A stretch of 64,000 nucleotides of DNA from a virus. This document shows positions 32,601 through 49,630 of the stretch, piece after piece (position 1 is the stretch's first letter; every line of letters begins with the position of its first letter). The DNA lies in the IMG/VR virus record IMGVR_UViG_3300005613_000048, positions 6,858-70,857 of that record; one strand, written 5' to 3'. The translations under genes and the position numbers were made by a program. The notes under the pieces were generated by a model. The model had not been told where the DNA came from. It saw nothing but the letters and a program-made list of their open reading frames with translations, and searched no databases.

Positions 32601-32781
32601 GACGATGGAATTGATGGAAGATCTTGGGTCGAAAGAGTTTGTTCGTCCCTACTTCCCCCAAGACATGATGGAACGACTCACGCCTGAGCAGCAAGAAGAG
32701 AGAATGCAGCTCCAGGCGATGATCAACGCCTTGGCCGCGAGGGCCAAGGCGAGAGCAGAGGCGGCTGCTAACCAGCGTTAG
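26680..32781 (+). CDS. Large polyvalent/ejection protein with a zincin-like domain
   Basis: PAFHVRN and PFYKF motifs of large injected proteins; inserted EVQSDWHQ domain and LLHEMAH...EQFAE between Gly-rich and Pro-rich linkers. Confidence 0.7.
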   Translation: MALGDLARRAKMRRYGGAGDIEMTPELEASLLGRIGDRAIGGIAAAGNILDLPGSTIRDVLTWIPGGIEGRNPVDQWLPWNWTSPQNRTTGRELLRSSGMLPKRNQGFGGMVAGIAAEIALDPLTYMTLGGASLTKAGTVMRNAGLMDDVTRVAAKKANVANGLIGKRQARVSTTFEDMYKAADTNQRAAIDIAAAEMGVKPASLMQDNLAGLVGFGLPFRDPSVVLGRGADRTAKRIDDTLSAIQYAKVPGTNFSPVNDMIVRPFNAMVGEARTKIGQAANRTLFENRGSKQWEARHRVAQFMTKLEDLNLTEEQYGDVLRQAFEIPGATKNLPPELQSMVKEMRKDLRRMPDEAAEYGIQLKNYIDPQAKYFPRYLTQSLHGKNSGGVPRVMSTLDPSQSERLEFLHGIKGGTVTSKNVFMDKDLNDLVDAGMDTGSIATHMKKLYGNNASELYVSPDIIPEIKKLVRATVPDLKLRKLLIDSMQDKTADQIYRMARNNLPAAGAQLDRLGNKFIKNRFNEMAKWFKGLSKETRDTAVFGNHPLADLQARLLSYNDSIEAAKVFTDTLAARGVTVAIDDKGVGPTIREMLTTAKLQSGTIRRGALKQIARKMGHDVDNMAPDKLQDVMNEIGRLRVRQDIADDMVRMQKGFSEPDSVSPLIEVVQNITNFYKSNLTSPFPAFHVRNLFSGQFQNWVRGMWDPQSAYDSHTFLRGGVISGAKDIPILQRIWRQRQAQYGAGPGAAGAGGAGGAAGGGGGAAGPGAGPSGGGGGVSPSVLPTSTPSGMQSPNPSGFFLRSQRVLNSVNQNVATADQWRAMLRKGGVKAEEFDDLEIEQFLQANPKATKQQLQEHIEANTPQIEIIPGKGEYAKYQIPGGDPGTYREILIRKPLAGDGKSLQDELNALEKIERDFTPAEYERYRELTVGRQNDSFYGPHFDESNVLAHLRVDDVTLPNGRKSLRVQEVQSDWHQKARSEGYRPKSTQGAVATEVPGSRSGTAGVGAGEHATYDVIFPGGINERVRASSPEKAIAIAYKAPRGWQKIPDAPFKKSWHMLGLKQILKQAAEEGYDEVSIVRGRDIAKTVGGPEDSLDKFYADIVSGDLKKYTKRWGSFQGDSQFPGAAKVRHREFVPRGERQVWLNTDDEFAGIDAGYYKEGSGWVATIREPWSAKTPWRQTFASKAEADRAIKEKLEAEYRDQYYYPEMTGDVKVFKITPEMRRDLLDEGQPMYSPAPTPSAAMPPAKSGPLASIGNKPINQWTPEQIRMISDGAEFSKISPSHKRLNDQIETLVKQRGILPADAEIMRLIYAQSKVHHLPDVVAAMRQIKTQEGKVIRGAAGIAESKFWGKKVDRVVMKSASQKTGDPGATDEGVRVLLHEMAHILSYDILHRKALGTATKEEIAAMDEFMAISRTTPTTDFQKEFASGGNAANQALHHSGAGARSGPQPWSEQFAEFYAQSVMRRKVPDGALGAIIHKATAWIRNMLNALRQVTGLKPDVRTRLDAIMDELGGFNQPPDISSLLNRAKSQAQPQPPRPQPQPQPQPQPPAPQPPGQQPPVPLPPGRQPPPLPPANQPPPPFNPQLPPAGAPMPATLDDETATRLLAELVYAYGLSGKFQGEASNVIGKPVMAQAGQLEDMMAQAPSPRRPGFNFLDVPSAYVGKKAGTTLNPLHARGVGTQIESRFGPLAAGEMAGYYIEGLNRISPFLNLLRKGVDPAEAAKRIGDAQVNYSNRHYTRFERDRASLLLPFYKFSRGMLPHTIRSLVEKPGGRLAQTIRAANSARETDALTPDYISETASIPANGLPFIGNPPEGTQRYITGMGLMFEDPLSFLGGGARGAGLELLSRMNPLIKGPLEWATGESFFQKGPRGGRDLEDLDPTLGRLFSNAGQLAQNPDAIFGGKTLPRTDAVTWPGSEQMEHILGNSPLARILTSARVASDPRKNLSTKALNLLTGLRISDVSPEASEAIVRERTMELMEDLGSKEFVRPYFPQDMMERLTPEQQEERMQLQAMINALAARAKARAEAAANQR

Positions 32782-33661
32782 CTCGTGTGACCGGAGGCAA
32801 TATCGGCTCGTCGGCTATTCGGCGGTCGATGTAGTGCTTGCGGCTCAGCGCGGGCTCTGTATGGCCAAGGTACTTCCAAGCAGTGTGCGGCGAGTTTGCT
32901 TCGACGGCAGTCGCCCCGGTACGCCTGAGGTGTTGCATGACACGATTACGCTCATTGGGATCGACTCCTGCCTGCTTTCGACACTGCTTCATCCAGTAAT
33001 AAAGCTGGGTCAAGCAGCCTGGAAATGCTAATGGAGTCTCCCACTTGGCATCGTTCAGCTCCTTTAGCCTGTTGCTGATCCACTCAAGCTCGTGGACTGT
33101 TTCACTGGTCAGGCGACATGAATGCACGCGGCTGGTCTTGTGTTGCGAGAACGACACTACATTCCCTCGCAGCCATGACATGTGAAACGAGAACGCATCT
33201 CCCCGCCGCATGCCAGTCTCGAAGCAGAACCATATCAGACATGGGAAGTACCTGTGCCTCGGTATCCCATTCACGAGCTTACCTCTGAGTTTAGAAGCTG
33301 CTTGTGCAACAGAATCCAATTGCTTGAAGTCCCATGCTTCTGGGTTCTTGTCTGCAACCTTCACTCTCCTGATCTTTCCAGGCTGTGCGGTAAGATCACG
33401 CTCGGCTGCGTACTTCCATATAGTTAGCATGCTGGTCCTTAGATTTTTCCTTGACCTGTCTGAGAGATTACCTTTCGATTGCTGGTCCTTTAACCACGAA
33501 TTTATGAGATGGTCCGACAGTTCGGATGCTAGGACTTGTTTTCCATGCCATTCTTCTAGCTTCCTCCTTGCGTAATCAAGCTGATACTCATACGCCGAAG
33601 TCAATTCGTTTTCCAGGAGATAACTCTCAACCAAACTTTCTAATGAAATGTTAGATTTCAT
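32768..33661 (-). CDS. int: Tyrosine integrase
   Basis: ETGMRRGD, QHKT, HLRR, LGH and KHY catalytic pattern; adjacent to a tRNA-fragment att. Confidence 0.9.
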   Translation of the reverse strand: MKSNISLESLVESYLLENELTSAYEYQLDYARRKLEEWHGKQVLASELSDHLINSWLKDQQSKGNLSDRSRKNLRTSMLTIWKYAAERDLTAQPGKIRRVKVADKNPEAWDFKQLDSVAQAASKLRGKLVNGIPRHRYFPCLIWFCFETGMRRGDAFSFHMSWLRGNVVSFSQHKTSRVHSCRLTSETVHELEWISNRLKELNDAKWETPLAFPGCLTQLYYWMKQCRKQAGVDPNERNRVMQHLRRTGATAVEANSPHTAWKYLGHTEPALSRKHYIDRRIADEPILPPVTRANAG

Positions 33662-42691: not shown

Positions 42692-43336
42692 ATGGTTGGT
42701 ATGGAATTTAAGGCGAGTCGCCAGTTTGGCGATAGGGCTTGGGTGGCTAGGCGTAGACTGGTCCACTTTGTTCACATAGATAACGCCGGGATGTTTGTTG
42801 CAGTCAGTACGGGCCATGAGCCGACAACGCACGCGACGTTTGCCGATGCTGTAAAAGAGTGTACTCGGCTGGAGTCTCTAGCGACTGAATGCGGTGCAGA
42901 TAAGTTTGCCGGGGACGATGGTCGCATGACTCCAGAGAAGGCTGCTCAGGTAGTGAAAGATATCTTGGGCGGAATCTTCGGAGGCGATGTGGGCGTGGAG
43001 GTTGAGACTCTCGGTACGATGCAGTGCCCAGTCCTTTCGCAGCATTTCTTTGCTGCTGATGGCAGGCCGGACGGCGGCGTTTCTCATGGCTTTGGGTTCA
43101 CTATCTCCTGGCAGCGTGGCCCTACAAAGCTGGAAGGAGAGTATCGACGCAACGGCGCATTCGTAACGGATGCTTTGGAGGCCGTCTACTCCAGGATCAA
43201 GAGTTACCAGGACGGCCCGTTCAAGTGCAAGGAGAATGAGGAGGCCCTGTTTCATATCCATAAGGCTTTGGCTGCTCTTAGTAGTCGCCGCGAACAGCGG
43301 AAGGCTCGCGGCGTAGAGGGAACACACGCAGTCTAG
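42692..43336 (+). CDS. Tad1-like anti-defence signalling-nucleotide sponge with N-terminal extension
   Basis: ISWQRGP..NGAFVTDALEAVYSRIKSYQDGPFKCKENEEALFHIHKAL..L..R..R..RGVEGT matches the Tad1 pattern. Confidence 0.78.
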   Translation: MVGMEFKASRQFGDRAWVARRRLVHFVHIDNAGMFVAVSTGHEPTTHATFADAVKECTRLESLATECGADKFAGDDGRMTPEKAAQVVKDILGGIFGGDVGVEVETLGTMQCPVLSQHFFAADGRPDGGVSHGFGFTISWQRGPTKLEGEYRRNGAFVTDALEAVYSRIKSYQDGPFKCKENEEALFHIHKALAALSSRREQRKARGVEGTHAV

Positions 43337-43439
43337 GCTGCGGTGTAGCTCGTATCCACGGAGGCAGAAACGTGGAGTCCAGGTTTAGGGTCATCCTGAA
43401 AGTAGCTCGAACCCATCCGCTACTTAGAAAACCCTATTC

Positions 43440-43541
43440 GGATCGGCGGTGTGACGCGACACCTACTTTGCAACGGAAGACCTACTTCACCGGAGGTGAG
43501 GAGCGCTGGGCTTCACGCAGGTTCAAATCCTGCCCGATCCA
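43440..43541 (+). ncRNA. tRNA-like RNA without a canonical anticodon arm
   Basis: Acceptor GGATCGG/CCGATCC-A, D-like hairpin GGTGT/ACACC, T arm GCAGG-TTCAAAT-CCTGC. Confidence 0.55.
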
Positions 43542-43606
43542 CTAACCGACTGCTGAGTCTGATTACATGGTCAATGATAAATCTGGTTCGACCTTCGTCG
43601 GTTTTT

Positions 43607-43680
43607 GTCGGGGAGAGTGTTGGTTCTCCGCTGGGTCTCATAAGCCCATGCTGACGCTCGTTCGATTCGAGCCCCCGGCC
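43607..43680 (+). tRNA. tRNA with CAT anticodon (Met/fMet/Ile2), atypical D arm
   Basis: Acceptor GTCGGGG/CCCCGGC, anticodon arm TGGGT-CTCATAA-GCCCA, T arm GCTCG-TTCGATT-CGAGC. Confidence 0.7.
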
Positions 43681-43717
43681 CTGTTGAGTGTTGTGATTAG
43701 CGTTTATTAGGAGTCTT

Positions 43718-43951
43718 GTGATGCGAGTGGAAGTTCCGATTCTGACAGCTCATGGTGCGGCGACTTATGAGGTGGATGCAAAGAATCAGACTGAGGCCAG
43801 GGAAAAGATTCAGCGAGGCGAGGCCAGGTTCTTAACAACTCAGATCGTGCATTACAAGTTGAATTTCGACGCGATCAGGGAGGTGCCGCGACCTGATGTG
43901 GATGCAGATGCGGAACTGTGCGATGTAAGAAACGTAGAAGCCGGTCGGTAG
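43718..43951 (+). CDS. Hypothetical protein
   Basis: AGGAG RBS. Confidence 0.55.
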   Translation: MMRVEVPILTAHGAATYEVDAKNQTEAREKIQRGEARFLTTQIVHYKLNFDAIREVPRPDVDADAELCDVRNVEAGR

Positions 43952-43978
43952 GCCGCTTGGTATTTGAGAGTAGTGAAT

Positions 43979-44443
43979 ATGTTGACTGACAGAAAAACTG
44001 AAGACACGTACATATTCCGAACAGAAAGCGGAATGAAAAACGGTCGTGAACCTAAAACCTTGCGGTTGCAACTTCCCTCAAGGCGAGTGTGGATCGATCT
44101 CGACGAGGTTAAATATGAAGCCCTGATTAAAGCGAGAGACGTTTGGCGACAACACTGCGAATTAGTCTCGCTCTCGGATTGTGCTGTAGACCTGCAACTA
44201 CACGGCGAAGGATTTACGGTTCGCATTTATTCAGCCTATTCACTAGTGAGCAACGAAATAGTTAGACCCACTAACTCGCTCAATTACATCGAGCTTGACA
44301 CGATTGGCCGCCGTTCAGAGATTATCATTTGCAACACCACGCCATCAGAAAAATCAGGTTTTAAAGGTTGTCTGGAATATTTTTTAGACAGCGTTGATGA
44401 AATGGAACGATTCGTTGCTTCACGGTCAACTAACCGCCACTGA
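43979..44443 (+). CDS. Hypothetical protein
   Basis: ORF following a TTGAGAGTAG leader. Confidence 0.55.
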   Translation: MLTDRKTEDTYIFRTESGMKNGREPKTLRLQLPSRRVWIDLDEVKYEALIKARDVWRQHCELVSLSDCAVDLQLHGEGFTVRIYSAYSLVSNEIVRPTNSLNYIELDTIGRRSEIIICNTTPSEKSGFKGCLEYFLDSVDEMERFVASRSTNRH

Positions 44444-44459
44444 GATATTGAGAGTAGCC

Positions 44460-44675
44460 ATGTCATTAAATTTGCCGCGGGATTTAGAGTTAAAGCTTGA
44501 TGAGTACCGGCGACATCGAAAGGATGAAACCGGCAAGCGACCGTTTCGAGACACGGCAATAGTTGAGTTGTTGAGGACAGCACTCGAAGGGTTTACGCCG
44601 CCACAGCCGCTATCGGATCGCATCGCCAAAATTGAAGATCGCTTGGATTTGATTGAAAGCGACTTAGGACAGTAA
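44460..44675 (+). CDS. Ribbon-helix-helix-like DNA-binding protein
   Basis: MSLNLPRDLELKLDEY...RDTAIVELLRTAL followed by a coiled coil. Confidence 0.55.
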   Translation: MSLNLPRDLELKLDEYRRHRKDETGKRPFRDTAIVELLRTALEGFTPPQPLSDRIAKIEDRLDLIESDLGQ

Positions 44676-44709
44676 CGGTCATATTTACATACACAGGAGT
44701 CCTGCGAAA

Positions 44710-44991
44710 ATGAATCCTTACGAAACGCCTACTGAACCAGAAGATAACGTTTGGACGGCACCGCGATGGTTCGCATTACCATTTCGAGTGCTTGGTTTTC
44801 CGCTTATGGCCGTGATTTATCTCGGCCTAAAAATCCCACTAGATATTGTGATATGCATGGATTGGATGTTCGATCGAGTCGCAGCGTGTTGCGGTTACGA
44901 TCCTAGATATTGGCCGCTGCCCAAGGGACAGGATGTTGATTTTCGTTTTCGTCGGCCACGATGCGAGCGTTGCAATCGTGCGGTCGATTAG
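44710..44991 (+). CDS. Small membrane protein (NPY.P start)
   Basis: AGGAG RBS; MNPYETP followed by a hydrophobic segment. Confidence 0.55.
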   Translation: MNPYETPTEPEDNVWTAPRWFALPFRVLGFPLMAVIYLGLKIPLDIVICMDWMFDRVAACCGYDPRYWPLPKGQDVDFRFRRPRCERCNRAVD

Positions 44992-45013
44992 TTCATAACA
45001 CTATCGAGAGAAC

Positions 45014-45184
45014 ATGAAGGCGTTCTTAGAAATAACCGACGAGCAGCGGGAGTCCATTCTGCTGAGTGCTGGCGTTGTACCGCTCAAATATGAGCTACAG
45101 AAAGACGGTACTGTCGTTGCTAAATATCCACCGCACACAATTGTATTTGTGAACGGAAGTTACATTGTTAGCGTCAAACACTAA
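45014..45184 (+). CDS. Small hypothetical protein (56 aa, not in ORF track)
   Basis: MKAFLEITDEQRESILL...VKH* with GAGAG leader. Confidence 0.4.
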   Translation: MKAFLEITDEQRESILLSAGVVPLKYELQKDGTVVAKYPPHTIVFVNGSYIVSVKH

Positions 45185-45192
45185 TTGAGAGT

Positions 45193-45254
45193 AGTAACGC
45201 TTCCCATTGCCAACAGAGCTTGCCGCCGCTCCGTTGCAATTTTTTGTTCGGTGG
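45193..45254 (-). other. Degenerate/partial attC site
   Basis: One arm GCCGC-T-CCGTTG-C-AAT and core GTTCGGTGG are present; the other arm is imperfect. Confidence 0.5.
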
Positions 45255-45274
45255 CTTTTCGAGGAATAGAGATT

Positions 45275-45595
45275 ATGCAAACGCATTACGACAACAATCA
45301 CCAATCGGCATTCATCGACGCATTGCGAGAGCGTGCAGCCAAAGCGGAGAAAGCAGCGGCATCGGTGATTACGGCAGGCGAGAAGGACGAACAAGAGCTT
45401 GGATCGTGGAAGGCATCGAACGGCGTTCATTGCCGTCATCTTCCAGACGATCCGCAAGGCATCCTGCGAATGAGCATTGGCGGCGGTGAACATCTTCCGG
45501 TCACGATGAATTACGTGGTGGTTCGCGGGAAGATTGGGCAGTGTATCGAGTTGCTGGAAAAGGCTCTTGTTGCGTTAAAGGAGTGCTCAGAATGA
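45275..45595 (+). CDS. Cassette-borne hypothetical protein
   Basis: GAGG RBS; lies inside the first attC cassette. Confidence 0.6.
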   Translation: MQTHYDNNHQSAFIDALRERAAKAEKAAASVITAGEKDEQELGSWKASNGVHCRHLPDDPQGILRMSIGGGEHLPVTMNYVVVRGKIGQCIELLEKALVALKECSE

Positions 45596-45774
45596 AACGG
45601 TTTATGCGATGGGTTCGGTTGACGTTGGGTTTAGCCACCGTTCCAGAAGTATGCGAAGCATCTTCCGGTGGCGTGGATTACCACGACTACCCCAAGGACA
45701 AGGGAGGCGACGGAACGCCGTCGCACTTCCACGAGTACACATGCTGGAATTGTGGCAAGAAGTTCGGAATCTAA
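45592..45774 (+). CDS. Cassette-borne small protein with possible Zn-ligand residues
   Basis: C...HDY...HF..YTCWNCG; AAGGAG RBS; stop directly before attC. Confidence 0.55.
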   Translation: MKRFMRWVRLTLGLATVPEVCEASSGGVDYHDYPKDKGGDGTPSHFHEYTCWNCGKKFGI

Positions 45775-45776
45775 GT

Positions 45777-45871
45777 CCACCGAACGCTGCCCATCATCGG
45801 GCAACGGCCAACAGATTAACCATTTCAAATAAACCACGCCCGTTGCTCCGATGCATGGGCTTGTTCTCTGT
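45777..45871 (-). other. Integron attC site
   Basis: CCACCGAAC...CCAT-CATCGG-GCAACGG loop CCGTTGC-T-CCGATG-C-ATGG...GTTCTCTGT with two extrahelical bases. Confidence 0.82.
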
Positions 45872-45887
45872 TCACAAAGGAAAAGAC

Positions 45888-46193
45888 ATGAAGTATGTAG
45901 GTTACGCAACAGTCACGATTTTGTTGATGGTGTTTTCGGCTCTGTTCAATGGATACGCCCTCTCGGTTTTGTGGGGATGGTTTATCGTTCCGACGTTCAA
46001 TTCGCCACAACTAAGTATTCCCGCAGCGATTGGAGTCTCAATGATCGTTGGATACTTGGCGAAGACGATCAAGGTGGACGACGAAGACAAACAAAAGCCG
46101 TTTGGCGAGACGCTGTTTAAGGGTGCGGTTTTGAGCGTGTTGAAGCCGACCATCGCGTTGATGTTCGGTTGGGTGGTCAGTGTTTGGATGTGA
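45888..46193 (+). CDS. Cassette-borne membrane protein
   Basis: LWGWFIVP.F..P.LSIPAAIG; three hydrophobic segments; fills the cassette. Confidence 0.7.
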   Translation: MKYVGYATVTILLMVFSALFNGYALSVLWGWFIVPTFNSPQLSIPAAIGVSMIVGYLAKTIKVDDEDKQKPFGETLFKGAVLSVLKPTIALMFGWVVSVWM

Positions 46194-46194
46194 T

Positions 46195-46288
46195 ACAGAG
46201 AACGTTTGCCGTCATCGGGCGGCGAAGGAAAAACTATGAACAAATCGAAAGACTCTCCCGCCGCTCCGATGCACGGCATTGTTCTCTG
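46195..46288 (-). other. Integron attC site
   Basis: ACAGAGAAC...GCCGT-CATCGG-GCGGCG loop CGCCGC-T-CCGATG-C-ACGGC...GTTCTCTG. Confidence 0.82.
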
Positions 46289-46619
46289 CGTGGCGGTGTT
46301 ATTGCTCATCAGTTGTTTGCTGACATCGAGTTACATTTGGTGTCACGCGATGGGCTGGCGATCAACCCGCGTCGTCGATGAAATTCACATCGAAAAGCTT
46401 GATGACAGGTACACCATCCCAGCAACACAAATGCGGAAGATGATTGCCTTCGATGGCTCACCTTTTTTCGACTACTGGTGGGAACCAGCAAAAGACATTC
46501 ACTATGAACGGTGGACCATCAAAGCGGTCGATGGATTTGAGATCGTAATTAACCGGGTAGATCCGATGGATCCGCCAGAGATTTGCGATGGCGATAGATA
46601 CACTGGATGGTGGAAGTAG
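46236..46619 (+). CDS. Cassette-borne protein starting inside the attC loop
   Basis: AAGGA RBS and ATG within the attC loop; TM segment; stop 5 nt before core CAGAGAAC. Confidence 0.55.
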   Translation: MNKSKDSPAAPMHGIVLCVAVLLLISCLLTSSYIWCHAMGWRSTRVVDEIHIEKLDDRYTIPATQMRKMIAFDGSPFFDYWWEPAKDIHYERWTIKAVDGFEIVINRVDPMDPPEICDGDRYTGWWK

Positions 46620-46737
46620 CCATCCAGAGAACTATTTATTCACCCCGGTTCACACAGGGTGAATTAGCAATTCGGCAAGAATCGCCACCTATGGGTGGTG
46701 GTGAGATTTGATAGTTCGATACGCGATAGGCATATTT

Positions 46738-46825
46738 GGATTGCAGGCGTGGGCCAGCCTAATCGGTTCATCCACGCAGGGGCGTAAATTCGCGGCAAAC
46801 ACAGGTTCGATTCCTGGGCGATCCA
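46738..46825 (+). ncRNA. Second tRNA-like RNA without a canonical anticodon arm
   Basis: Acceptor GGATTGC/GCGATCC-A, D-like AGGC/GCCT, T arm CAGG-TTCGATT-CCTG. Confidence 0.5.
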
Positions 46826-46861
46826 CTGGTTAGGTTTTGGTGTTTTTTTAAGGAGAGACAG

Positions 46862-47143
46862 ATGGAAACGACAGAGACAGGATTGGTAGAGCAGTCGGAT
46901 ACGCCACGCAGTCTGGTAAGCCTCGACCATAACGGGCCGAGCATACGCGTGTTGTGCATTGGTAATGGCAATATGGTTGTGCCGGCTGGCGCAGTTGATG
47001 AAGACGGGAACGCTAGGCCGATCAACCATAGTTTTGTGTCGAGGCTTTCTTTCGGCATGTTCGCGCTGTCATTCGCATGTGGTCTGAGCCTCGGCGTATG
47101 GACCAACGTACTCATGGATTGGATTGTAGCGCGGGGATGGTAA
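46862..47143 (+). CDS. Small protein with C-terminal TM
   Basis: AAGGAG RBS. Confidence 0.6.
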   Translation: METTETGLVEQSDTPRSLVSLDHNGPSIRVLCIGNGNMVVPAGAVDEDGNARPINHSFVSRLSFGMFALSFACGLSLGVWTNVLMDWIVARGW

Positions 47144-47955
47144 GGCGAGTGCAGCGAAAAAGGCTCAAGGGTTGGCAGAGTCCGCCGAACACTCGTTCGG
47201 TCTGCCGCCCTGGAAGGTTCGGCAATCCGTTTGCCACTGCGAAAGCGTACCGCGACTGGCTTGTTCGCGGCGAGGTTGATCGGATGCAGTTACTCGACCA
47301 GCTCTCGGCTGCGGAACTAAGATGCAGGCGGTTCGAGATCCTGTCTGCCCTGCATGAAATACGCAGACAGAACCTGAGTTGCTTTTGTCCGCTTGATGGG
47401 GATTGCCATGCCGATGTGCTTTTGGATCTTGCGAATCGTCGCAGCGACTGGATCACTGACGGAGGCGAATTGACTGCCTTTGGTGCAGTATTCAGCGATG
47501 ATCGCAGGTATCGTTACACGCTTTGGCGGCGATGGAGCTTTGGAGGTGATAACCTTTGTGCTTTCATAGGCCTCAACCCTTCAACTGCGGACGAGTTCAG
47601 GAATGACCCGACAGTGACTCGTTGCATCAGGCGCGCGCAGCAGCTCGGCCACAGTGGCATGGTCATGCTTAACTTGTTTGGCTATCGCGCCACTGACCCG
47701 CGCGACATGAAGAGGTTCCCAGAGCCCATTGGCTGGCAGAATGACCAGGCTATCTTGGATGTATGCAGGGAAGCAGGGAGAGTGATCTGTGCATGGGGCG
47801 CTCATGGTGAATACCAGGGGCGGGCAGAGCATGTGTTGGGCATGCTGAAGCGCAATCGGATCGCAGTCTATCACTTGGGCTTGACGCAAGCTGGACACCC
47901 ACGGCATCCGCTTTACTTGCGAAATGATTTGGTTCCCGAGCGTTGGGAGATTTGA
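47137..47955 (+). CDS. DUF4326-DUF1643 fusion protein
   Basis: RPGRFGNPF..LSCFCP..CHADVL (DUF4326) then YRYTLWR..FIGLNPSTAD..DPT..AWG..PRHPLY (DUF1643). Confidence 0.8.
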   Translation: MVRRVQRKRLKGWQSPPNTRSVCRPGRFGNPFATAKAYRDWLVRGEVDRMQLLDQLSAAELRCRRFEILSALHEIRRQNLSCFCPLDGDCHADVLLDLANRRSDWITDGGELTAFGAVFSDDRRYRYTLWRRWSFGGDNLCAFIGLNPSTADEFRNDPTVTRCIRRAQQLGHSGMVMLNLFGYRATDPRDMKRFPEPIGWQNDQAILDVCREAGRVICAWGAHGEYQGRAEHVLGMLKRNRIAVYHLGLTQAGHPRHPLYLRNDLVPERWEI

Positions 47956-48019
47956 TGCGGACTTGGGACCGCTTCTATCAGGAAGTGCATTAACCGGCGT
48001 CCTTGCCGGTCCCTCTGCG

Positions 48020-49630
48020 TTAGTTGAGCTTGAGCATGTTAGATGGTGCGATTCGGAAGCTCGAACCGAATGTAGATCGAATGAACTCAGCGTCTCCATT
48101 GGTGGCCTGGAGTTCTTCGATAGCATCCTCAGCACTGCGGAGCCATCCCAGCAGTCTGCCTGCCTCGACATTGATTGCCAACATGAGCTTCTGGCTGAAT
48201 TGCATGTGCAGGTTTTGATTCTTGAAGGCCCGCACGGCCACCAGCGGCTCGCCGTCATTCATCTTGATGGTGTTCTTCGTGCTGCTCGACCACCGATAGT
48301 TTAGTGGACTGTCGTCGCAATCGAAACCGAGGTTGTTGGCTACCGTGATGCAATCGCGGATGAAGTCATACGCAGCCTAACAGAGCCCGTTGCGGTTCTC
48401 GAACTGCCACTGCGAAGTGCTGATTCCGCCAATGCGTTCGCAGACAATGCGGTACTCCAGCTTGTAATGGCTGTGATGTTCGTCCAAGTATCGCCATCCC
48501 GAACGCTCCCATACTTTGTGGTTTGATTTGTAGTTGACGACGTTGCACTTCTCGCTCAGCATTCGGAACACGCCGATGAGCTGTTCATCGAAGTAATCAT
48601 TGGACCATTTGGTGATCCAGATCAGCATGGAGTAGATGTTGCTCTCGGTGAAGTCGATGGTTGACTTGCTTTCGAGGCTGTCAAGAAACTGCTTGCGTTG
48701 CTTGGTCGCGAGTCGCTTGGTGATTGGATCCAGGCGATCGAAAAGAACACGCCAGTATTTGTACTTGAGGCCCGTAATCTTTTCCCTAATGCCAACCATC
48801 ACGCTGCTCTTAGTGACATCTAGTTCCTTCAGGATGATTGGATTTAGTTGTGCAACAGCCCTGTAGTTGTTCACGAGCTGAACCAGCTCGGCATCGTAGG
48901 CCTTCACGAGCGACTGGATCAAGTTGGAATCGCTTTCGATCATGCGGCAGGCTCGATCGTAAGCGTCAGTCTCGGGCTCAAGCTCAATGTCGAAAACTTC
49001 GAGTTCAGGCATCATCTCCTCGATTGCAGCATTGAAAGGGCAATGCTCGTGGTCGCGAAGGTAGAGGTAGACAACCTCGACCTTGCACCTTGCTTTGCGT
49101 TCGGCGTTTTCAAAGTCAAACTCGCCAAGCGATACGGTTTCGACGTTGCGAGAGGCAATGGCAGCATTGATTTCCAGTGACTGCCTCCAACGTCTAGGAA
49201 TCACCAAGTACAAATGATTCGCGTTCGATTCGCGGATCAGTTTCACTGCCCAATCCTCGTACTCACTGTACGGTGGATTTGAAAAAGTGATATCCATGTG
49301 CTTGTCGACGATCATCTGACACCGAAAGTCAGTTCCAATTACGACAATATGCTTTGGCATTGCGTTGAGGTGTGGAGTTGCCTTCTCGATGCCAAAGAGT
49401 TCCACTTGGTGGTGGAAGTTCTTGTTCTCATCGAGGGTGCTTTTGATGGCATCGAGAACCCGTCCGTCACCAGCTCCGACATCAAGGATCTTCAGTTTGC
49501 CGTGGTGGTAGTCGACTTGCGAGACGATGTGGCTGGCGACCAACTGAGTAATCTCCTCAGTCGTTGGATACCATTCAAAATCTTCGCCAGCATCTTTCAA
49601 TGCTAGTACGGTCTGCGTGGTGCTACTCAT
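48020..49630 (-). pseudogene. SAM-dependent methyltransferase with DUF4942-like C-terminus, interrupted by one in-frame TAG at 48377-48379
   Basis: EWYPT, LDVGAGDG and NPPY motifs; frame stays open after TAG through AFKNQNLH..NVEAGRLLGWL. Confidence 0.72.

Follow-up and report, generated by a model that had tools for sequence, protein, structure and literature searches.

The cassette array in the phage genome

The 64,000-nt stretch of viral DNA analysed here (the window) corresponds to bases 6858-70857 of the IMG/VR virus record IMGVR_UViG_3300005613_000048, a 70,857-nt genome with direct terminal repeats that is complete by CheckV. The products encoded by the record include a large terminase (a weak match), a replication initiator, a DnaB helicase, a Dam-type methylase and a generic integrase, and the phage is probably temperate. 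Nearly every gene from 34 kb to 48 kb lies on the + strand. In the small-gene region 3' of the replication genes, window positions 45196-46632 contain two intact hairpins of the integron attC type, each about 83 nt long (h1 and h2), a decayed third site (h0), a terminal R box and three cassettes (c0, c1 and c2). We propose that this segment is probably an attC-site cluster devoid of an integron integrase (CALIN) that bounds three mobile gene cassettes. Its features are listed below, with the slash in AA/C marking the predicted cut.

45196..45254, + strand: h0, decayed attC site and left end of the array; AAC at 45196-98, GCT spacer, GTT at 45246-48; right R-box flank GTTCGGTGG, reaching 45254, complementary at 6/6 bases to the left flank of h1
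45198..45784, + strand: cassette c0 (cut at AA/C), comprising h0 and the overlapping open reading frames (ORFs) 45275-45595 (106 aa) and 45592-45774 (60 aa)
45777..45871, + strand: h1, intact attC site read as bottom strand; AAC at 45783-85, GTT at 45863-65; left flank CCACCGAAC (45777-85), right flank GTTCTCTGT (45863-71)
45785..46202, + strand: cassette c1, comprising h1 and ORF 45888-46193 (101 aa, membrane protein)
46195..46289, + strand: h2, intact attC site read as bottom strand; AAC at 46201-03, GTT at 46281-83; left flank ACAGAGAAC, right flank GTTCTCTG
46203..46631, + strand: cassette c2, comprising h2 and ORF 46236-46619 (127 aa, hydrophobic N-terminus)
46625..46632, + strand: terminal R box CAGAGAAC, right end of the array, with non-attC sequence beyond it

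The two intact sites share a common build. Each begins with xxxxx(G/T)AAC and a GCT spacer and runs through stems of 6, 6 and about 7 pairs to a loop of about 33 nt, and the returning arm consists of a bulged T, six pairs, a bulged C, six pairs, TT and GTTxxxxx; the bulges are identical in h1 and h2, T first and C six pairs further out, both on the 3' arm of the + strand. The layout of h1 is a GCT spacer, the stems GCCCAT/CATCGG/GCAACGG, a 33-nt loop, CCGTTGC-T-CCGATG-C-ATGGGC and TT. Both sites fold into a single long imperfect hairpin, at -20.1 kcal/mol for h1 (z -4.5) and -29.2 kcal/mol for h2 (z -6.4), and in neither case did any of 200 shuffles fold as well; relative to shuffles, the - strand folds are similar in strength to those of the + strand. 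In the loop of h2 lie the start codon of the following ORF (ATG at 46236) and its ribosome-binding site, AAGGA; the 3' arm of h2 is translated. In h0 the 3' arm is kept (GCCGC-T-CCGTTG-C-AATTTT-TT-GTT), and the site as a whole folds no better than shuffles (z 0.06).

The cassettes obey an end rule in which the nine-base stretch following a GTT is reverse-complementary to the nine-base stretch that closes with the next AAC. Besides the 6/6 match between h0 and h1, the c1 terminus ACAGAGAA/C is complementary to c1's own GTTCTCTGT at 6/6 variable bases, and the terminal R box matches the right flank of h2 at 5/6, the longer arms 46278-46294 and 46619-46635 being 82% complementary. The initial annotation of this DNA, made from the letters alone, had described two complete attC-like hairpins with extrahelical T and C, a partial site ending at 45254 and an end rule that holds three times, and each of these is present as described. 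Two corrections are needed: the end rule is reverse-complement symmetric and by itself does not give polarity, and the left and right flanks of h2 are complementary to each other as well.

The distance between h1 and h2, which lie on one strand, is 418 nt. No candidate for IntI was found with TIGR02249 in the complete 70,857-nt record, in line with the annotation, and the array is accordingly not part of a complete integron; it falls under the definition of a CALIN, which takes at least two co-oriented attC sites within 4 kb (the clustering rule of Cury et al. 2016) and no IntI. Among the cassette genes, the c1 ORF matches phrog_2169, 'membrane protein' (E 2.4e-11, + strand); Pfam and PHROG gave no match for the c0 and c2 ORFs, and the protein Atlas gave no usable match for c2.

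Identification of the hairpins as attC sites

A structural scan based on this geometry gave 0.05 matches per shuffled 70.9-kb genome. It revealed a five-hairpin array in viral record G002 (identical in G005) and a six-hairpin array in G003, and a covariance model (R1) built from 17 phage hairpins only, with no bacterial sites, increased the hairpins of record G004 to four, three of them consecutive, and those of G001 to two. A two-arm pattern picked out ten viral stretches, of which five are true homologues and five are chance matches; the pattern scan of species-representative genomes yielded 7 stretches and zero hairpins, and 10 of the 21 stretches from the metagenome pattern scan had no model match.

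The 17 aligned phage sites behave as a constrained structure. AAC and GTT are invariant and paired in 17/17 sites, 17 of the 19 stem pairs change on both sides, and 93.3% of the cells are paired, compared with 67% in shuffles, none of 500 reaching that value, and 29-42% after the partners have been slid. The bulged T is invariant; the second bulge is C (G once), lies 6 nt away and stands 8 nt before GTT. The central spacer measures 3 nt (GCT) on one arm and 2 nt (TT) on the other, and the loop is about 33 nt in the phage sites and 3-35 nt in the bacterial matches described below. The resulting spacing T, 6, C, 8, GTT equals that of the attCaadA7 bottom strand, which reads T, 6 nt, G, 8 nt, GTT in Table S3 of Qi et al. 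2023. Nivina et al. 2016 define the bottom strand, which is the recombined one, by an AAC located in its 5' arm and extrahelical bases located in the arm facing it. This is the arrangement found on the + strand of the window, whose reading as the attC bottom strand in the initial annotation therefore stands.

Across six phage arrays, 17 of the 18 junctions agree with the end rule at 5/6 or more of the variable bases and 12 of the 18 at 6/6, against a background of 45 in 534 non-adjacent pairs at 5/6 or more; in bacterial arrays the corresponding count is 63 of 84 junctions. This complementarity from neighbour to neighbour bears on the possibility that the hairpins serve a regulatory purpose between genes, as RNA or DNA elements (for instance terminators or processing sites, or stem-loops that favour modular exchange by homologous recombination, as in a proposal for T4-type phages), and are not sites of site-specific recombination. 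In favour of this reading, the genes on either side of the hairpins are co-oriented, the presence of ribosome-binding sites and start codons in the loops makes an effect on translation plausible, and attC sites are described as weak terminators (Qi et al. 2023). Flank complementarity between neighbours is nevertheless unexpected for regulatory elements, G-U pairs occupy only 3 of 374 paired cells in the alignment, Rfam has no family matching the hairpins, a promoter and terminator scan of 43000-48500 found neither promoter-like nor terminator-like sites in excess, and the same model R1 finds arrays adjoining intI. We regard a purely regulatory nature as highly improbable; a regulatory side-role alongside recombination could exist.

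Reciprocal search in bacterial genomes

R1 scores 87.8 bits on h1, which belongs to its training set, and 79.7 bits on h2, and misses h0 at E<=1. Its behaviour in bacteria was examined around integron integrase genes, IntI being called by TIGR02249 above its cut-off; this gave IntI in 79 of 401 sampled Planctomycetota genomes and, for the control, in 74 of 201 sampled Gammaproteobacteria genomes (a tally that includes G448 and G550, flagged unpublished and contributing no sequence). Around 20 Planctomycetota intI genes (351 kb), R1 gave 24 matches at E<=1, the best at 66 bits and, like the phage sites, 83 nt long; around 20 gammaproteobacterial intI genes (383 kb), it gave 19 weaker matches, the best at 45 bits and with a third bulge. 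Searching five whole Planctomycetota genomes yielded 18 matches, 9 of them within 10 kb of intI. At E<=1e-8, matches occurred in 8 of 151 Planctomycetota genomes versus 0 of 151 Gammaproteobacteria. Two of these eight Planctomycetota genomes gave 25 and 26 R1 matches among the 30 candidates scored per genome, and the fetched arrays of G019 and G144 contain 96 R1 matches in 86 kb, with 32 in the 20 kb of one G019 locus (L144, G019:C8:39900-59899) that ends about 0.8 kb from intI. A Vibrio contig beside intI had no R1 match; it lacks a repeat array too and is hence unusable as a control. Chromosomal integron arrays in this collection can be very dense, as seen in L144 and in the G144 contigs L146-L154, with a median cassette of about 650 nt.

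R1 matches lie beside intI in both bacterial groups; R1 thus recognises attC sites generally, and the phage sites are nearest to the planctomycete type. The attC identity claimed at the outset is upheld on three counts, the attCaadA7 bottom-strand geometry, the position of the bulges on the arm facing the AAC, and the recovery of arrays adjoining true intI by a model trained on phage sites only. The sites are of the two-bulge type, about 83 nt long, of the large chromosomal integrons in some Planctomycetota, and this attC type points to a putative planctomycete host. When 22 cassette proteins of the phages were compared by tblastn with 32 loci of bacterial arrays, only two weak methyltransferase matches resulted, both at a single locus.

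Polarity of the cassette genes

A canonical cassette carries its gene on the top strand with attC 3' of the gene, and the cassettes of the window are not built in this way. Polarity was called from the longest ORF between successive sites in arrays with at least two co-oriented matches, three units of more than 2.6 kb being dropped. In true integrons the strand matched by R1 opposes the genes, and attC lies 3' of the stop codon: the canonical arrangement was found in 13/14 Planctomycetota units beside intI, 9/9 gammaproteobacterial units and 76/84 units of the G019 and G144 arrays, together 98 of 107, leaving 9 of 107 with bottom-strand sense. In the phage-record arrays and the sister contig L104, by contrast, 15 of 17 units are reversed, with a reversed majority in every one of six phage arrays, which agrees with the initial description of the genes as inverted relative to attC. 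Both exceptions (window c1 and one G003 unit) are near ties, and for c1 the family match, phrog_2169, belongs to the + strand ORF. The difference in polarity between phage and integron arrays has a Fisher p of 2e-11, which overstates the significance as units within an array are non-independent; it is 4e-10 when L107 and L108, metagenome contigs of the same attC subtype with canonical polarity, are added.

L107 and L108 carry the CATCGG-type attC subfamily found in the phage. Their genes, which include one for an HNH endonuclease and others for membrane proteins, are canonically placed, and the two contigs may represent the counterpart of the phage sites in bacteria.

Domain matches agree with the reversed reading. 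All four phage cassette genes confirmed by Pfam have bottom-strand sense; they encode two N6_N4 methyltransferases (3e-41 and 5e-21), a C5 methyltransferase (9e-21) and a GIY-YIG protein (3e-4). The orphan DNA methyltransferases in the cargo of the sister arrays suggest a counter-defence and accessory role.

The phage cassette genes typically start within or just 3' of a hairpin, often with the ribosome-binding site and start codon in its loop, and stop a few bases before the next AAC, and in some cassettes the TAA of TAAC itself serves as the stop codon. As the start of the c2 gene in the h2 loop illustrates, each gene is tied to its upstream hairpin, giving a unit of the form C-hairpin-GTTx'-gene-xAA, which agrees with the predicted + strand cleavage at AA/C. 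At L083 13292-14658 (G003), three distinct cassette proteins share an almost identical opening peptide, MSETNEAS..., since the attC loops that contain their first codons are nearly alike; the hairpin and the N-terminus are thus constrained together. We found no description of bottom-strand phage cassettes in the full-text literature searched, although some supplementary tables of Qi et al. 2023 may bear on the matter. What is new is the consistently mirrored polarity; phage CALINs as such were already known from the text of Qi et al. 2023.

Signs of cassette gain, loss and reordering

One sign of cassette movement comes from sister contigs. Contigs L104 and L094, compared with L099, have flanks that are 100% identical and three extra cassettes (679, 729 and 354 nt; 1762 nt in total) lying between cassettes c and d. 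The junctions read CCGCATAA/C with perfect end-rule matches throughout, and they are compatible with IntI exchange at AA/C. Capture or shuffling of cassettes is thus partly shown.

The cassettes of the window itself were compared with assembled contigs of public runs, 13 runs each with at most 0.11 of the words, at 88% likeness. A 6479-nt contig of run X2 contains window 45202-45788 (c0) as a block with 21 differences, followed by a different hairpin, and it has an h1-like hairpin 1.8 kb upstream of c0, in an order unlike that of the window. In contigs of runs X3 and X4, the c0 genes are preceded by an intact and different hairpin, and the h1-like hairpins in the run contigs are followed by other sequence right after GTT. 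Comparison of cassette content and order in related phage contigs had been put forward in the initial annotation as a check, and it turned up variation with breakpoints at the cores. The annotation had also held that the phage uses a host integrase to capture or shuffle genes: the three-cassette indel at cores and c0 in another order speak for the capture or shuffling, and the host IntI as its agent is what we infer.

These comparisons weigh on a further explanation, in which the array would be no more than an inert remnant of a host integron, acquired once by illegitimate or homologous recombination and immobile since. The decay of h0 and the shortness of the window array would fit such a history. 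No close relative of the window phage was found for a cassette comparison in a search with the neighbouring 292-aa protein, and the sole further copy of the array, L097, is 100% identical and so uninformative on cassette content. A copied piece, however, would be read backwards, since host arrays of this attC class are canonical in 76/84 units as against 15/17 reversed in the phage records, and yet genes whose starts lie in loops fill the array densely. The folds of h1 and h2 are strong, sister contigs with identical flanks differ by a cassette indel, and c0 stands in another order elsewhere. An immobile relic is, in our estimation, unlikely.

Candidate recombinase and proposed mechanism

We propose that a host IntI is the most economical candidate for the enzyme acting on these sites. 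When the + strand is single-stranded, each site would fold into an attC bottom-strand hairpin, and the host IntI would cut the 5' AAC between its A and C and exchange strands with a second attC or with a plain GTT/AAC site in the genome. C-hairpin-GTTx'-gene-xAA units might in this way be excised as circles, inserted and reordered. As the genes have bottom-strand sense, rightward transcription of the phage can read the cassettes; in a host integron, identical cassettes would point towards the cassette promoter.

A phage-encoded tyrosine recombinase other than IntI, acting on the hairpins in a self-contained phage cassette system, would be the other possible enzyme. The window phage has one such gene:

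32768..33661, - strand: generic tyrosine recombinase (297 aa), the sole one in the phage, 12 kb from the array

This protein scores 21.5 bits on PF00589 (below the cut-off), matches the phrog_1 integrase at E 1.2e-16 and has no NCBIfam match, TIGR02249 included. In three of the five other viral records (G002, G003 and G005), a generic tyrosine recombinase gene lies even closer, within 1-2 kb of the array. In L081 4226-5405 (G002; identical in G005), the gene of a generic 366-aa tyrosine integrase ends exactly inside the R box, AACTTTAAC, of the first attC of the five-cassette array; its stop codon and this R box overlap, and it runs in the same direction as the cassettes. The three recombinases, counting that of the window, are nevertheless mutually dissimilar, with no significant pairwise similarity, and the IntI model, whose cut-off is 265, gives them 19-23 bits or no score. 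The window's enzyme is 12 kb from its array, and no recombinase is encoded in G004, which is a complete record of 40 kb and has four hairpins. Sites of this class also adjoin true intI, and recombinases of this kind neighbouring attC sites are not IntI according to Cury et al. 2016. We therefore judge a self-contained phage system very unlikely.

Several points weigh against the interpretation of the array as a CALIN of mobile cassettes served by a host IntI. Only two intact sites are present in the window array, h0 being decayed, and the identity of the recombinase is a point that we infer. The indel junctions share 13 nt of identity, which is compatible with homologous recombination, and a contig of run X1 joins 45193 to 46629, omitting exactly the array, which gives only a hint given that its shorter side is 20 nt. 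The boxes of the window (CCACCGAAC/GTTCGGTGG and ACAGAGAAC/GTTCTCTGT, with GTTCGGT and GTTCTCT) depart from the extended core consensus RYYYAAC / GTTRRRY; certain sister sites conform to it, e.g. with GTTAGGT, and only AAC is conserved in all attC sites according to Nivina et al. 2016. Near-identical hairpin cores (window h1, L001 and L006) differ in their downstream genes, in their R boxes and in the flanks outside AAC/GTT. Shared cores with different R boxes are unexplained by one-sided AA/C exchange alone, and they require either that cassette genesis reuses one attC, in the manner of chromosomal integrons, or a degree of exchange on the top strand. The orientation call from the longest ORF is a heuristic, with two phage cassettes near ties. 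Finally, R1 gave 0 matches at E<=10 on TJE1, a published CALIN phage of Qi et al. 2023.

Surroundings of the array

The neighbourhood of the array contains the following further features.

43607-43681, + strand: gene for tRNA-Met with anticodon CAT, roughly 1.5 kb upstream of the array
46638..46667, no strand assigned: short non-attC hairpin ATTCACCC...GGGTGAAT, z -2.3 (+) and -3.5 (-), no R1 match
about 46795-46826, + strand: look-alike of a tRNA 3' half, seen by eye, with the T-loop motif GGTTCGATTCC followed by the acceptor-like GGCGATCCA
47077-47955, + strand: DUF4326-DUF1643 fusion (E 3.8e-12 and 1.6e-44), shortly 3' of the array
47957-48019, - strand: complete type-P5 twister ribozyme (Rfam RF02684, 45.2 bits with a gathering threshold of 37.6, E 9.5e-8)

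The short hairpin may represent the context of the original insertion site. The tRNA-like stretch, called by neither ARAGORN nor Rfam, might be the remnant of an attachment site. The + strand block ends at 47955 and a methyltransferase-like gene on the - strand has its 3' end at 48377; the twister ribozyme lies between these two positions. GC skew is positive until about 48 kb, and the cassette genes follow the G-rich + strand. A protein Atlas search with the helicase returned phage DnaB clusters only, which gave no lead on host or function.

Relation to known systems and implications

The closest published precedent is the survey of Qi et al. 2023, who reported 17 CALINs in 10,705 NCBI phage genomes, from temperate and virulent phages, with methyltransferases in the cargo, and found that IntI1 recombined 5 of the 6 phage attC sites tested. 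Clusters of attC sites devoid of IntI in phages, methyltransferase cargo and a proposed bacterial IntI are shared with the array described here. The CALINs of Qi et al. 2023 differ in being assigned the 'typical structure' of bacterial arrays; a term search of the available text returned no mention of reversed polarity, and the supplementary file examined contains no planctomycete names. A route by which IntI could seed an array outside an integron is attG insertion (Loot and co-workers, bioRxiv 10.1101/2022.09.11.507474), which yields CALINs and single attC sites. The window array ends in xAA/C and gives way to ordinary phage sequence; the attG route itself was shown for bacterial chromosomes.

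With the sedentary chromosomal integrons of Planctomycetota (G019 and G144), the phage array shares an attC length of 80-85 nt, the cassette rule, R1 scores (up to 70 bits in those integrons) and the geometry AAC-GCY-6-6-stem ... stem-T-6-C-6-TT-GTT with two bulges. The chromosomal integrons differ in having a true intI alongside and arrays tens of cassettes long, and in carrying their genes on the top strand with attC after the stop in 76/84 cassettes.

Another likeness is to the 'mobile regulatory cassettes' of T4-type phages, promoter-stem-loop elements that carry a promoter and have been proposed to act by homologous recombination. Both involve conserved intergenic stem-loops that bound small accessory genes in a plastic region of a phage genome. 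The window differs in showing no promoter signal and in having flanks that follow the integron end rule.

Among bacteria, integron cassettes provide a major route for exchanging genes, and the participation of phages in it is barely explored. The present analysis adds records of uncultivated phages with attC sites that clearly belong to the planctomycete chromosomal-integron type, sequence-level signs of recent cassette gain or loss, and a consistent reversal of polarity that is essentially unobserved according to current integron models. Tools that assume a gene 5' of attC will mis-assign these cassette genes, and h1 and h2 offer concrete substrates for work on strand selectivity.

It is possible, if rather doubtful at present, that Planctomycetota phages keep a cassette pool of their own, the mirror image of that of the host, using the host's attC grammar and enzyme. 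With genes along the G-rich + strand, the recombinogenic strand would then lie on the lagging-strand template, a placement suggested by GC skew together with published orientation effects: excision is far commoner when the recombinogenic strand is on the lagging-strand template (Loot et al. 2017; Richard et al. 2024). Cassettes of such a pool would be expressed only in the phage operon and silent when lodged in an integron of the host, orphan methyltransferases and other counter-defence genes would turn over fast, and cassettes would be born with either polarity, which would bear on the unsolved question of cassette origin. If the reversal is functional, with a presumably adaptive reason behind it, the cassette pools of phage and host would be compatible for recombination and not for expression, and the phage could hijack an adaptation system of its host to shuffle counter-defence genes.

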